From a virus (taxonomy: Duplodnaviria; Heunggongvirae; Uroviricota; Caudoviricetes): a stretch of DNA of 23,092 bases. The position numbers and the translations under genes were made by a program. Position 1 is the first letter of the stretch; each line of letters begins with the position of its first letter. The notes beneath the pieces are model-generated. The model was given only the letters and a program-made list of their open reading frames with translations. It ran no database searches and was not told the DNA's origin. Positions 106 to 23,048 of the stretch are shown here, in pieces. The stretch is taken from the IMG/VR virus record IMGVR_UViG_2681813271_000002; one strand, given 5' to 3'.

Positions 106-534
106 TTAGTGCGGAAATATTTGTGTAGTGTTCTGTATGTTCTCAGTAAAGAGTAATGAATTATCAAAGGTATAGTAATANNNNNNNNNNNNNNNNNNNN
201 NNNNNNNNNNNNNNNNNNNNNNNNNNNNNNNNAAAACCCCTGCTGTAGCAAGATTTTTCCTGTATTCGTAAAATGATAACTCTCCTGATTTGAATCCTTT
301 TAAGGTGGCTTCTATAAGGCATTTATTTTTTGAAAATCTTACATTTACAACCTTACCCTGTCCTTTTATTAAAACCGTATTATCGTTTTCAAGAACAAGA
401 TGAATATTCTCTGTGGCTAAATAGTAAATGTAATGTGAGACATTGTGACGTTTTAGTTCAGAATAAAACCAGTGATAGTTTAAATTATTTCGCACTTTAT
501 CGAATATTTGTTTAAAAATGGCAACCTGAGCCAT
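106..534 (-). CDS. ydfO: DUF1398-family prophage accessory protein (YdfO/YbcV-like); interior interrupted by N-run 181-232
   Basis: Minus-strand ORF 106-549 from the track. Translation ([55 protein letters not shown]...[22 protein letters not shown]) matches my recollection of E. coli cryptic-prophage YdfO/YbcV proteins. The second in-frame ATG (534) has a GGAAGG Shine-Dalgarno 7 nt upstream; the first ATG (549) has none, so 534 is preferred. Position next to a ynfO-like gene and a Nu1 homologue mirrors the Qin prophage order nohA-ynfO-ydfO. Confidence 0.55.
181..232. other. N-run (52 nt), unresolved sequence inside the ydfO-like gene
   Basis: Run of n in the sequence. Confidence 1.
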
Positions 535-591
535 TGTAGTACCTTCCATGTGATATGAGGGGGCGTAGTCTGCACGATTATCTAAATTGCT

Positions 592-825
592 TCAATCTGG
601 TCTAACCTGTTTTCTGAGCAATTCAGTAATGTCACTCTTTTCTTTGTTTGCTTCAGGCGAAACTCTTTTTTCTGAGCACAGTCTCCGGCGGCAGGCTTCA
701 ATGACCCAGGCTGAGAAATTCCCGGACCCTTTTTGAACAAGAGCGATGTTAATTTGTTCAATCATTTGGTTAGGAAAGCGGATGTTGCGGGTTGTTGTTC
801 TGCGGGTTCTGTTCTTCGTTGACAT
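592..825 (-). CDS. ynfO: DUF3950-family small prophage protein (YnfO/YlcI-like), possible ribbon-helix-helix DNA binder
   Basis: 77-aa minus-strand ORF, MSTKNRTRRTTTRNIRFPNQMIEQINIALVQKGSGNFSAWVIEACRRRL..., matching recalled YnfO/YlcI proteins found next to terminase small-subunit genes in E. coli lambdoid prophages. Basic N-terminus followed by a short beta-strand/helix pattern is compatible with an RHH fold (inference). Confidence 0.6.
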   Translation of the reverse strand: MSTKNRTRRTTTRNIRFPNQMIEQINIALVQKGSGNFSAWVIEACRRRLCSEKRVSPEANKEKSDITELLRKQVRPD

Positions 826-984
826 GAGGTTGCCCTGTATTCAGTGTCGCTGATTTGTATTGTCTGAAGTTGTTTTTACGTTAAGTTGATGCAGATCAAT
901 TAATACGATACCTGCGTCATAATTGATTATTTGACGTGGTTTGATGGCGTAGATGCACGTTGTGACATGTAGATGATAATTATT

Positions 985-1200
985 ATCATTTTGCGGGTCC
1001 TTTCCGGCGATCCGACAGGTTACGGGGCGGAAGGCGCGCGGGTTTTCGCTATTTATGACAATTTTCCGGTTTAAGGCGTTTCCGTTCTTCTTCGCCGTAA
1101 CCTAATGTTTTTATTTAAAACACCCCCTGAAAAGAAAGGAAACGACAGGTGCTGAAAACGGGCTTTTTGGCCTCTGTCGTTTCCTTTCTCTGTTTTTGTC
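985..1200 (+). promoter_or_regulatory. cos: cos DNA-packaging site: cosQ, cosN and cosB with three Nu1-binding R elements
   Basis: Near-identity to the recalled lambda right-end/left-end junction (…gatgataattattatcattttgcgggtcctttccggcgatccgacaggttacg|gggcgg…cgcgggttttcgctatttatga…). R-element motif CGTTTCC(G/T)TTCT occurs at 1077-1090 (R3), inverted at 1134-1148 (R2) and direct at 1177-1190 (R1). R2 and R1 form a perfect 15-bp inverted repeat (gaaaggaaacgacag at 1134-1148, ctgtcgtttcctttc at 1174-1188). Sits immediately upstream of nu1. Confidence 0.85.
1025..1036 (+). promoter_or_regulatory. cosN: cosN cohesive-end segment (12 nt between the terminase nick sites); variant GGGCGGAAGGCG versus canonical lambda GGGCGGCGACCT
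   Basis: Flanks acg|…|cgcgggttttcgc are identical to lambda. The 12 nt between them differ at positions 7-12. Confidence 0.7.
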
Positions 1201-8999: not shown

Positions 9000-9633
9000 A
9001 TGGCCATAAAAGNNNNNNNNNNNNNNNNNNNNNNNNNNNNNNNNNNNNNNNNNNNNNNNNNNCAGCCGTATCAGCAAAACGGCGGTGCCCGGTGCCGCCG
9101 CAATGGCCATTAACCGCGTTGCTTCATCCGCGATATCGCAGTCTGCGTCACAGGTTGCCCGTGAGACAAAGGTACGCCGGANNNNNNNNNNNNNNNNNNN
9201 NNNNNNNNNNNNNNNNNNNNNNNNNNNNNNNNNNNNNNNNNNNNNNNNNNNNNNNNNNNNNNNNNNNNNNNNNNNAGTTAACCGGGGGGATTTGCCCGTA
9301 ATCAAGCTGGGTAATGCGCGGGTTGTCCTGTCCCGCCGCAGGCGTCATAAAAAGGGGCAGCGTTCATCCCTGAAAGGTGGCGGCAGCGTGCTTGTGGTGG
9401 GTAACCGTCGTATTCCCGGCGCGTTTATTCAGCAACTGAAAAACGGCCGGTGGCATGTTATGCAGCGTGTGGCCGGGAAAAACCGTTACCCCATTGATGT
9501 GGTGAAAATCCCGATGGCGGTGCCGCTGACCACGGCGTTTAAACAGAATATTGAACGGATACGGCGTGAACGTCTTCCGAAAGAGCTGGGCTATGCGCTG
9601 CAGCATCAACTGAGAATGGTAATAAAGCGATGA
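9000..9633 (+). CDS. Z: tail completion protein Z; coding sequence interrupted by two N-runs, reading frame not continuous across the first
   Basis: ATG at 9000 (MAIK…). After the first N-run the sequence encodes …SRISKTAVPGAAAMAINRVASSAISQSASQVARETKVRR; after the second, VNRGDLPVIKLGNARVVLSRRRR…[11 protein letters not shown] and a stop at 9631-9633, which overlaps the U start (ATGA). All visible segments match lambda gpZ. The span is 55 nt longer than lambda Z (579 nt) and the frame shifts from 0 to 1 across the first gap. Confidence 0.85.
9013..9062. other. N-run (50 nt) inside Z
   Basis: Run of n; replaces about 25 nt of lambda-equivalent coding sequence. Confidence 1.
9182..9275. other. 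N-run (94 nt) inside Z
   Basis: Run of n; replaces about 65 nt of lambda-equivalent coding sequence. Confidence 1.
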
Positions 9634-16416: not shown

Positions 16417-17050
16417 NNNNNNNNNNNNNNNNNNNNNNNNNNNNNNNNNNNNNNNNNNNNNNNNNNNNNNNNNNNNNNNNNNNNNNNNNNNNNNNNNNNN
16501 NNNNNNNNNNNNNNNNNNNNNNNNNNNNNNNNNNNNNNNNNNNNNNNNNNNNNNNNNNNNNNNNNNNNNNNNNNNNNNNNNNNNNNNNNNNNNNNNNNNN
16601 NNNNNNNNNNNNNNNNNNNNNNNNNNNNNNNNNNNNNNNNNNNNNNNNNNNNNNNNNNNNNNNNNNNNNNNNNNNNNNNNNNNNNNNNNNNNNNNNNNNN
16701 NNNNNNNNNNNNNNNNNNNNNNNNNNNNNNNNNNNNNNNNNNNNNNNNNNNNNNNNNNNNNNNNNNNNNNNNNNNNNNNNNNNNNNNNNNNNNNNNNNNN
16801 NNNNNNNNNNNNNNNNNNNNNNNNNNNNNNNNNNNNNNNNNNNNNNNNNNNNNNNNNNNNNNNNNNNNNNNNNNNNNNNNNNNNNNNNNNNNNNNNNNNN
16901 NNNNNNNNNNNNNNNNNNNNNNNNNNNNNNNNNNNNNNNNNNNNNNNNNNNNNNNNNNNNNNNNNNNNNNNNNNNNNNNNNNNNNNNNNNNNNNNNNNNN
17001 NNNNNNNNNNNNNNNNNNNNNNNNNNNNNNNNNNNNNNNNNNNNNNNNNN
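16417..17050. other. N-run (634 nt) at the junction between the two M-L-K-I copies
   Basis: Run of n. Must contain the last ~36 codons of I copy 1 and the first ~20 codons of M copy 2; if the length is real, more than 400 nt of content is unknown. Confidence 1.
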
Positions 17051-19398: not shown

Positions 19399-22300
19399 AT
19401 GGGTAAAGGCAGCAGTAAGGGGCATACCCCGCGCGAAGCGAAGGACAACCTGAAGTCCACGCAGCTGCTGAGTGTGATCGATGCCATCAGCGAAGGGCCG
19501 GTTGAAGGTCCGGTGGATGGATTAAAAAGCGTGCTGCTGAACAGTACGCCGGTGCTGGACAGTGAGGGGAATACCAACATCTCCGGCGTCACGGTGGTGT
19601 TCCGGGCAGGTGAGCAGGAGCAGTCACCGCCGGAGGGATTTGAATCCTCCGGCTCCGAGACGGTGCTGGGTACGGAAGTGAAATATGACACGCCGATCAC
19701 CCGGACCATCACGTCGGCAAACATTGACCGACTGCGTTTTACCTTCGGTGTACAGGCACTGGTGGAAACCACCTCAAAGGGAGACAGGAATCCGTCTGAA
19801 GTTCGCCTGCTGGTTCAGATACAGCGTAACGGTGGCTGGGTGACGGAAAAAGACATCACCATTAAGGGCAAAACCACCTCGCAGTATCTGGCCTCGGTGG
19901 TGGTGGATAACCTGCCGCCGCGCCCGTTTAATATCCGGATGCGCAGAATGACGCCGGACAGCACCACAGACCAGCTGCAGAACAAAACGCTCTGGTCGTC
20001 ATACACCGAAATCATCGATGTGAAACAGTGCTACCCGAACACGGCACTGGTCGGCGTACAGGTGGATTCGGAGCAGTTCGGCAGCCAGCAGGTGAGCCGT
20101 AATTATCATCTTCGCGGGCGCATTCTGCAGGTGCCGTCGAACTATAATCCGCAGACGCGGCAATACAGCGGTATCTGGGACGGAACGTTAAAACCGGCAT
20201 ACAGCAACAACATGGCCTGGTGTCTGTGGGATATGCTGACCCATCCGCGCTATGGCATGGGGAAACGTCTTGGTGCGGCAGATGTGGATAAATGGGCGCT
20301 GTATGTCATCGGCCAGTACTGTGACCAGTCGGTGCCGGACGGCTTTGGCAGCACGGAGCCGCGCATCACCTGTAATGCCTGGCTGACCACACAGCGCAAG
20401 GCGTGGGATGTGCTCAGTGATTTCTGCTCGGCGATGCGCTGTATGCCGGTATGGAACGGGCAGACGCTGACGTTCGTGCAGGACCGACAGTCGGATAAGG
20501 TGTGGGCCTATAACCGCAGTAATGTGGTGATGCCGGATGATGGCGCGCCGTTCCGCTACAGTTTCAGCGCCCTGAAAGACCGCCATAATGCCGTTGAGGT
20601 GAACTGGATTGACCCGGATAACGGCTGGGAGACGGCGACAGAGCTTGTGGAGGATACGCAGGCCATTGTCCGTTACGGTCGTAACGTCACGAAGATGGAT
20701 GCCTTTGGCTGTACCAGCCGGGGGCAGGCACACCGCGCCGGGCTGTGGCTGATTAAAACGGAACTGCTGGAGACGCAGACCGTGGATTTCAGCGTGGGTG
20801 CTGAAGGGCTTCGTCATGTACCGGGCGATGTCATTGAAATCTGCGATGATGACTATGCCGGTATCCGCACCGGCGGGCGCGTGCTGGCGGTGAACAGCCA
20901 GACCCGGACGCTGACGCTCGACCGTGAAATCACGCTGCCATCCTCCGGCACCACGCTGATAAGCCTGGTTGACGGGCAGGGGAATCCGGTCAGCGTGGAG
21001 GTCCAGTCCGTCACCGACGGCGTGAAGGTAAAAGTGAGCCGTGTTCCTGACGGTGTTGCTGAATACAGCGTGTGGGGGCTGAAGCTGCCGACGCTGCACC
21101 AGCGATTGTTCCGCTGCGTGAGTATCCGTGAGAACGACGACGGCACGTATGCCATCACCGCCGTGCAGCATGTGCCGGAAAAAGAAGCCATCGTGGATAA
21201 CGGGGCGCACTTTGACGGCGACCAGAGCGGCACGGTGAATGGTGTCACGCCGCCAGCGGTGCAGCACCTGACTGCCGAAGTCACCGCAGACAGCGGGGAA
21301 TATCAGGTGCTGGCGCGCTGGGACACGCCGAAGGTGGTGAAGGGCGTGAGCTTCCTGCTCCGTCTGACCGTAACAGCGGATGACGGCAGTGAGCGGCTGG
21401 TCAGCACGGCCCGGACGACGGAAACCACTTACCGCTTCACACAACTGGCGCTGGGGAACTACAGGCTGACAGTCCGGGCAGTAAATGCGTGGGGGCAGCA
21501 GGGCGATCCGGCGTCGGTATCGTTCCGGATTGCCGCACCGGCAGCGCTGTCGCGGATTGAGCTGACGCCGGGCTATTTTCAGATAACCGCCACGCCGCAT
21601 CTTGCGGTTTATGATCCGACGGTACAGTTTGAGTTCTGGTTCTCGGAAAAGCGGATTGCGGATATCAGGCAGGTTGAAACCACAGCACGCTATCTTGGCA
21701 CGGCGCTGTACTGGATAGCCGCCAGTATCAATATCAAACCGGGCCATGATTATTACTTTTATATCCGCAGTGTGAACACCGTTGGCAAATCGGCATTCGT
21801 GGAGGCTGTTGGTCAGCCGAGTGATGATGCATCCGGTTATCTGGATTTTTTCAAAGGCGAGATAGGGAAAACCCATCTGGCTCAGGAGCTGTGGACGCAG
21901 ATTGATAACGGTCAGCTTGCGCCTGACCTGGCTGAAATCAGGACGTCCATTACGGATGTCAGCAATGAAATCACGCAGACCGTCAATAAGAAACTGGAAG
22001 ACCAGAGTGCGGCAATTCAGCAGATACAGAAGGTTCAGGTTGATACAAATAATAATCTGAACAGCATGTGGGCTGTGAAGCTGCAACAGATGAAGGACGG
22101 ACGCCTTTATATTGCGGGTATCGGTGCCGGTATTGAGAATACGCCAGCAGGAATGCAGAGTCAGGTGCTGCTGGCGGCAGACAGGATTGCGATGATTAAT
22201 CCTGCGAATGGCAACACAAAGCCGATGTTTGTTGGTCAGGGCGATCAGATATTCATGAACGACGTGTTCCTGAAACGCCTGACGGCTCCCACCATTACCA

Positions 22301-22779: not shown

Positions 22780-23048
22780 NNNNNNNNNNNNNNNNNNNNN
22801 NNNNNNNNNNNNNNNNNNNNNNNNNNNNNNNNNNNNNNNNNNNNNNNNNNNNNNNNNNNNNNNNNNNNNNNNNNNNNNNNNNNNNNNNNNNNNNNNNNNN
22901 NNNNNNNNNNNNNNNNNNNNNNNNNNNNNNNNNNNNNNNNNNNNNNNNNNNNNNNNNNNNNNNNNNNNNNNNNNNNNNNNNNNNNNNNNNNNNNNNNNNN
23001 NNNNNNNNNNNNNNNNNNNNNNNNNNNNNNNNNNNNNNNNNNNNNNNN
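22780..23048. other. N-run (269 nt) spanning the J 3' end, the J-lom intergenic region and the lom 5' end
   Basis: Run of n. Confidence 1.

Follow-up and report, generated by a model that had tools for sequence, protein, structure and literature searches.

Arc and Mnt of phage P22 are small basic phage proteins with the RHH fold of the MetJ/Arc superfamily, encoded in the immunity region, and the strand N11-L-R13-W-P15 of Arc reads the operator. RHH proteins are also found as the antitoxins of type II toxin-antitoxin systems such as RelBE, ParDE and mycobacterial MazEF, in which the RHH fold carries a C-terminal extension. Accessory genes of another kind are bor and lom of phage lambda, the classical prophage-expressed morons. 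Located within the late region or next to it, with bor on the opposite strand, these additional genes encode outer-membrane proteins with known phenotypes; their presence varies between phages, their G+C content is deviant and they are dispensable for lytic growth.

Two further families, DUF1398 and DUF3950, have members close to cos. The enterobacterial members of DUF1398 include YdfO (prophage Qin; PDB 2HH8), YbcV (prophage DLP12), YcgX and lambdap78 of lambda, and DUF3950 is represented by YnfO (Qin), YlcI (DLP12) and an unnamed 64-codon ORF to the left of cos in lambda. In E. coli K-12 the order is ynfO-ydfO beside nohA in Qin and ylcI-ybcW-ybcV beside nohD in DLP12, which bears out the original prediction that both genes recur beside terminase genes in cryptic prophages. 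In lambda, lambdap79 (ybcW-like) lies on the opposite strand between the DUF1398 and DUF3950 genes; these copies had been overlooked in that prediction. Both genes are already catalogued, lambda included, and there is nothing new in their existence. The annotated 177-aa lambdap78 has 41 extra codons ahead of the conserved MAQVAIF start. No function was assigned to either family in the literature found, in agreement with the earlier view that neither has a settled one. Both belong to the few lambda reading frames still without an assignment, and since similar DNA was detected in 4597 of 5426 complete E. coli genomes (85%), knowledge of their function would have broad relevance. In 2091 of the 5426, the 1.3-kb query was covered to at least 80%.

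The locus analyzed here belongs to a stretch of 23,092 nucleotides of a Caudoviricetes record (IMGVR_UViG_2681813271_000002), hereafter the window. Its DUF1398 allele (NNLNYHWF...) is distinct from the K-12 and lambda copies, with 76–88% identity, and is interrupted by a masked stretch, unlike YdfO, YbcV, YcgX and lambdap78. Residues 1–50 of its DUF3950 protein are 95–98% identical to YnfO, YlcI and the lambda 64-aa ORF, to which its gene also corresponds in orientation and in distance to cos. The tail of this 77-aa protein is of the Qin type and differs from the lambda/DLP12 type (TSEKRAYTSIKSDEE), as well as from the tails of the Stx-phage, PerC-linked and TonB_C-linked alleles. Since the window has no ybcW/lambdap79 insert, unlike lambda and DLP12, its layout is of the Qin type.

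In a 2026 preprint, lambdap79 was described as sensed by the Vulcan defence system, and recombination with Qin as the way in which lambda vir loses lambdap79 and escapes this NADase defence, leaving lambda with a Qin-type layout. What is added here is that the layout of the window is the one that lambda acquires in this escape.

Organization of the right end of the genome

The start of the window corresponds to the right end of a lambda-like genome; what follows is the left arm of lambda as far as gene J, with the ORFs of Nu1 and gene A starting at 1214 and 1734. The coordinates of the features are collected in Table 1. As originally proposed, the two small genes run opposite to the late operon just to the left of cosQ. 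Their placement between the lysis region and cos held for the cos side; the lysis genes lie outside the window, which begins 105 nt to the left of the DUF1398 stop codon, and are found ~0.35–1.2 kb further left in near-identical records.

Table 1. Features at the right end of the lambda-like genome, in window coordinates.
Feature	Position	Strand	Remarks
DUF1398 (YdfO/YbcV-type) gene	106-534	-	longer ORF 106-549; Pfam DUF1398 match
N-run inside the DUF1398 gene	181-232		52 N in place of 34 real bases
Candidate promoter TAGACC-16 nt-GATAAT	604-577	-	best minus-strand site in 500-1060
DUF3950 (YlcI/YnfO-type) gene	592-825	-	77 aa; Pfam, NCBIfam and phrog_949 matches
Palindrome ATCTGGTCTAACCTGTT (GGT-N3-ACC)	595-611		over the last ynfO codons, at the mosaic junction
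Inverted repeat ATCAATTAATACG / CGTCATAATTGAT	895-927		70-102 nt upstream of the ynfO start; candidate operator
cosQ GGGTCCT	995-1001	+	right limit of the ynfO module
Mature right end	1024	+	199 nt from the ynfO start
Variant 12-nt cohesive end GGGCGGAAGGCG	1025-1036	+	context 1021-1045

The cohesive end of the window (GGGCGGAAGGCG) differs from that of lambda (GGGCGGCGACCT) by five changes within one 6-base block, located in a stretch that is otherwise 98.6–98.8% identical. The exact 30-mer around it was found in 29 viral contigs, which identifies it as naturally occurring cos variation rather than an error.

The interruption of the DUF1398 gene by an N-run was also found as described, with the masked bases exactly at the predicted place. 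At this point 34 bases, which read CCTTTTGTTTTCGTGGATATTTGTAATCCATCTG, are present in E. coli D3 (98.8% identity across the 1.3-kb query) and in the cultivable phage PhiR49_1 (98.6%), and the flanks of the run are identical to intact DUF1398 genes. Since 52 and 34 are both 1 modulo 3, the frame is kept across the run. Five N-runs are present in the window (181-232, 9013-9062, 9182-9275, 16417-17050 and 22780-23048), and the first one indicates that their lengths are no guide to the true ones. Additionally, a 632-aa ORF on the minus strand (20188-22086) was recognized as a shadow frame within the plus-strand gene J, with only a sub-threshold Pfam match.

The DUF3950 protein as a probable Arc-like DNA binder

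The assignment of the gene next to cosQ to DUF3950 was corroborated above the curated cutoffs of both Pfam (PF13132; E 2e-20, 72.8 bits versus 25) and NCBIfam (YlcI_YnfO_N, NF041551; 35.2 bits versus 30), and phrog_949 was matched as well. Residues 1–50 form a basic core that is near-invariant among E. coli alleles (pI 11.8), while the tail, residues 51–77, is wholly different between alleles. Over codons 1–50 the pN/pS was 0.11–0.17 against alleles with a pS of ~0.5; the protein itself must therefore be under selection, and not just the cos-adjacent DNA. Chance ORFs are excluded by the HMM scores together with the purifying selection.

The original prediction had noticed an RHH-like pattern in this small basic protein, and this was upheld with moderate strength. 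The structural model (pLDDT 66) consists of an extended N-terminus, a helix at 19–32, a turn GSGN and a second helix at 37–52. An hhalign comparison with a small, manually entered RHH alignment (Arc, Mnt, AmrZ, CopG, NikR, RelB and ParG) gave a probability of 79% and an E-value of 1.7e-5, in a register that places N14-I-R16-F-P18 of YnfO on N11-L-R13-W-P15 of Arc. Arc/Mnt and YnfO, as modelled, have in common a strand with the motif N-[LI]-R-[WF]-P, followed by a helix, a G-x-x-N/S turn and a helix. Two DUF3950 homologues matched phrog_497 (HicB-like) with E 0.04–0.055. Unlike Arc and Mnt, YnfO has no Pfam RHH match (no RHH model was matched by four DUF3950 homologues at E up to 10), its RHH function is a prediction, and its gene lies at the lysis/packaging boundary; PDB searches by single sequence and by profile returned ribosomal noise only. 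Judging from the model and the alignment, the DUF3950 core is probably an Arc-like RHH domain. A testable assignment as an Arc-like DNA binder, with a core under strong purifying selection, is thereby added to the description of the family.

The DUF1398 gene and its product

The second family assignment was borne out by a full-length match to Pfam DUF1398 (PF07166), with E 3e-32 and 111.6 bits versus a cutoff of 22, covering profile positions 1–119 of 119. The gene most likely starts at ATG 534 (MAQVAIF...) and not at the in-frame ATG 549, as this is the start annotated in RefSeq and is preceded 7 nt upstream by a GGAAGG ribosome-binding site, within which ATG 549 falls. The product, as a RefSeq protein, has 136 aa, versus the 141 or 147 aa implied by the window.

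The protein matched YdfO (NMR structure 2HH8) with E 2.9e-67, and the AlphaFold2 model of a 99% identical protein (pLDDT 87.7) displayed two alpha-alpha-beta3 repeats; the protein has the three-dimensional fold of YdfO. No solved structural relative of this fold was found in the fold search, toxins and structural proteins included. Neither a membrane segment nor a signal peptide was detected in this protein, the maximum KD19 (19-residue hydropathy) being 0.39; its pI is 9.4. The pN/pS was 0.33–0.37 versus two other alleles. Residues T46, N48, G104 and Y119 (P0002 numbering) are invariant, and R20 and R117 almost so.

Phage proteins of this family have been labeled "head protein" (phrog_413 and RefSeq phage records) or "putative envelope protein". 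These labels conflict with each other and are unsupported, as the protein is soluble and has no hydrophobic segment; their correction is part of what is added here.

As regards the spread of the family, a profile word search recovered 26 DUF1398 proteins, and all those with a source name were enterobacterial. The first viral scan returned 99% identical copies only. An exhaustive phmmer search for distant relatives yielded only 220 clusters, and fragments and lambda control reads full of errors accounted for many of these.

Two separate mosaic modules

The original prediction had treated the two genes as a recurring pair with a conserved role. The adjacency was substantiated: in the window, ynfO (825-592) and DUF1398 (534-106) are adjacent and co-oriented with a 57-nt spacer, and ynfO was located 60–61 nt upstream of the DUF1398 allele of the window in 79 of the 79 viral loci that carry this allele with enough flanking DNA, whatever the type of terminase. 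The idea of a functional unit was not sustained, as each gene was found alone in several contexts and homology breaks fall between them.

In phage records DUF3950 was counted 155 times and DUF1398 43 times. The Stx phages BP-4795 and 1717 carry DUF3950 without DUF1398, between Rz and the HNH/TerS genes, and other DUF3950 alleles adjoin PerC-like or TonB_C-like cargo. Xenorhabdus homologues (46–56% identical) are encoded in a P4-like element, flanked by a primase gene and an AlpA-like one. Many prophages, in turn, have DUF1398 next to cos as the only one of the two genes, and in some of them Nu1 is 98–99% identical. More distant DUF1398 members are lone genes on the chromosome, following an aryl-polyene cluster, close to fimbrial genes or, in Salmonella, close to sopE2.

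The boundaries were delimited by a three-way alignment. The cos block ends at cosQ, where homology with the DUF1398-only arrangement resumes, the ynfO block extends from ~600 to 995, and that of DUF1398 begins at CAATCTGGTC, ~65 nt ahead of the start codon of this gene. Unrelated DNA replaces ynfO in the DUF1398-only prophage locus L159, and ybcW is inserted in lambda. The tails of both the 77-aa and the 64-aa YnfO alleles occur ahead of DUF1398, and the tail is thus not matched to the neighboring gene.

In the prophages with DUF1398 and without ynfO (L141–L162; e.g., L159, 3400–3950), a segment of ~470 bp of unrelated DNA was observed between cosQ and the upstream block of DUF1398. It contains short ORFs only (53–96 aa), with no RefSeq annotation.

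The wide occurrence of each gene alone and the mosaic junction between them argue against a functional pair, and by comparison of these loci ynfO and DUF1398 appear as two separate mosaic modules, a distinction that is added here. Both show the marks of morons, namely presence or absence among near-identical phages with sharp homology breaks, and a deviant base composition (31% G+C for DUF1398 and 44% for ynfO, versus 54% for the Nu1-A terminase genes and 56% for the whole window).

The same distribution bears on a role of both genes in packaging or in the virion, for which the "head protein" label of phrog_413 could be invoked, together with the fact that DUF3950 adjoins the first packaging gene with both Nu1-type and HNH/TerS-type terminases. 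This role is near refutation and we regard it as close to excluded. Both genes are transcribed against the late operon, there are lambda-like prophages that lack ynfO or lack DUF1398 despite a 98–99% identical Nu1, and DUF3950 is also present in the Xenorhabdus satellite, far from any terminase. A virion component is further opposed by the small size and solubility of the DUF1398 protein, whose YdfO relative was solved by NMR, and by the lack of similarity to structural proteins in the fold search. Moreover, the CRISPRi knock-down of lambdap78 did not reduce plating (EOP 1.9; PMC10695390).

Transcription signals

The promoter of the two genes had been expected in 826-960, but no sigma-70 consensus promoter was found on the minus strand of this interval, where the best candidates, TTGATC-15-TAAAAA and TCTACG-16-AATAAT, were below consensus. 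The best minus-strand candidate (Table 1) is located between the genes, ~45 nt upstream of the DUF1398 start. The ~65-nt block that holds it accompanies DUF1398 in all three arrangements, although its hexamers differ in the DUF1398-only arrangement. No terminator was found between ynfO and DUF1398, and this, together with the spacing fixed in all 79 loci, makes co-transcription possible in the arrangement of the window. The search for a terminator after DUF1398 gave a hairpin that was not significant (z -1.2) and had no T-run.

The candidate promoter is overlapped by the GGT-N3-ACC palindrome, which corresponds to a PdhR SELEX site reported in Qin and DLP12 (PMC7660256). A conserved YnfO/PdhR operator at this palindrome was considered and rejected, as GGT is changed to GAT (GATCAGACC) in 37 of the 109 ynfO-positive loci. 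Further upstream, all the ynfO alleles compared share the right arm of the inverted repeat and the 115 nt that follow as far as the ATG; the left arm is absent in one of the loci (L176).

In a Xenorhabdus DUF3950 homologue (L046, 3870–3958), the palindromes TTGGTACGTACCGA and CTGGTACATACCAA were detected within ~60 nt upstream of the ATG. These palindromes of the GGTAC-N-GTACC type are candidate operators, and on sequence grounds they would fit autoregulation by a small DNA binder. The pattern is not transferable to E. coli.

The position of the genes could also suggest that they are first-entry genes, transcribed by the host RNA polymerase from the entering linear DNA before circularization, and conditioning the cell or countering its defences. 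The geometry is suitable, as both genes lie at most 0.9 kb from the right end and point inward, with the ynfO start 199 nt away, and the sensing of the neighboring lambdap79 by Vulcan indicates that the region does meet host immunity. This scenario is highly improbable, however: no promoter was found near the right end, no known anti-defence family was matched, the order of ejection is disputed, with either end coming out first in vitro (PMC10287942), and cryptic prophages, from which no injection ever takes place, have retained the genes and transcribe them.

Orthologues in K-12 and lambda and the toxin-antitoxin alternative

All the expression data found concern the K-12 or lambda orthologues and not the element of the window. 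Overlapping ybcW-ylcI transcripts were present in at least 50% of K-12 RNA-seq samples (PMC12288877). The ybcV mRNA was down 10-fold in a pdhR mutant (PMC7660256), and ydfO was induced 12- to 116-fold by an ionic liquid (PMC4077768). In addition, ybcV was among the genes most strongly regulated by copper, and ydfO responded to the induction of DicC. Regarding phenotypes, the overexpression of ybcV from the ASKA collection gave viable clones with a glycogen-excess phenotype (PMC2853380), and resistance to oxidative stress was raised by YdfO overexpression according to earlier work as cited in PMC4077768. In one study ydfO was called essential, by TraDIS only (PMC5821084); we suspect that AT-richness and paralogues depress the insertion calls in this gene, and for these reasons the call was not accepted as antitoxin-like evidence.

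The gene order and the sizes in the window match type II toxin-antitoxin systems with RHH antitoxins: a small RHH gene comes first and a gene of 136 aa follows ~60 nt later on the same strand, at the fixed spacing described above, and YnfO, with its predicted RHH fold and C-terminal extension, has a variable tail after the core, as antitoxins do. YnfO would then be the antitoxin and autorepressor, and the DUF1398 protein the effector, of a toxin-antitoxin, abortive-infection or superinfection-exclusion pair, a reading to which the TraDIS call and weak matches of the DUF1398 protein to HEPN_AbiA_CTD (E 0.005, 17 bits versus a cutoff of 27) and to PADLOC PDC-M11A (E 0.004) could be added.

Such a pair is unlikely. 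Unlike RelBE, ParDE and MazEF, ynfO and DUF1398 are not co-inherited, as each is common on its own, and the fold of the downstream protein does not resemble that of a toxin. Their relatives in lambda and DLP12 are separated by a gene on the opposite strand, and the DUF1398 gene is preceded by two different YnfO tails. The HEPN_AbiA_CTD match was judged compositional, being below the cutoff in an AT-rich gene whose product is K/N/I/Y-rich, and the PDC-M11A match was also below the cutoff and the only one in a PADLOC scan that recovered no curated system. By fold and PADLOC searches, the DUF1398 protein has no relation to any known toxin or defence effector. Furthermore, no toxicity of DUF1398 or YnfO was reported in the literature found, ybcV overexpression was viable and that of ydfO is cited as protective. 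The earlier hint at superinfection exclusion is hence unsupported, given the lack of co-inheritance and of a toxin or defence fold, and the tolerated overexpression of the orthologues. A two-gene defence or exclusion module specific to the Qin-type arrangement, in which YnfO would be a dedicated switch at the lysis/packaging boundary of lambdoid prophages, silencing the adjacent DUF1398 cargo gene up to the arrival of a signal, and DUF1398 an effector guarding the lysogen from other phages, is very unlikely.

Proposed model

The locus probably consists of two independent accessory ("moron"-type) modules located at the right end of a lambda-like prophage, between the lysis genes and cos, and oriented against the late operon. 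The analysis establishes the family membership of both products, the YdfO fold of one and a probable RHH fold of the other, together with the modular distribution of the genes, their purifying selection and their composition, and we infer DNA binding, autoregulation and a host-directed role of the modules.

The first module would comprise ynfO and its ~170-nt upstream region (about 600-995), and encode a small basic Arc/Mnt-like RHH protein. YnfO probably dimerizes, binds DNA and acts locally on transcription, its own promoter being the simplest target. The mosaic junction lies inside the 3' end of ynfO, which accounts for the variable tail.

The second module would be formed by the DUF1398 gene, which is AT-rich, and by the ~65 nt of upstream DNA that belong to it, and its product would be a soluble cytoplasmic protein with the YdfO fold. 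By analogy with lambdap78, this gene would be dispensable for lytic growth. Its orthologues are stress-responsive and PdhR-dependent (PMC4077768, PMC7660256), and by the same kind of analogy it is probably expressed in the lysogen under host and stress control, and would act on host physiology and not on phage morphogenesis.

Like bor and lom, both modules are extra genes beside the late region that vary in presence between phages, deviate in G+C content and would be dispensable for lytic growth, and both share the opposite orientation of bor. In contrast to the outer-membrane proteins encoded by bor and lom, the products of the modules are predicted to be cytoplasmic, and of signals of their own there is a candidate promoter ahead of DUF1398 and no significant terminator. 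The general picture of lambdoid genomes is unchanged by the module map or by the Arc-like assignment.

Lambda DNA in records of unrelated taxa

The genome scan for DUF3950 was swamped by "genomes" of unrelated taxa in the form of short contigs, many of ~3.5 kb, that were 95–98% identical to the right end of lambda. Examples were found under Streptomyces, Cohnella, Pedobacter, an Arcanobacterium "plasmid" and a Nanosynbacter MAG. These contigs most likely represent contamination with the lambda control DNA used in nanopore sequencing. The record MW057783, deposited as "Campylobacter phage CJLB-4", also holds the right end of lambda.
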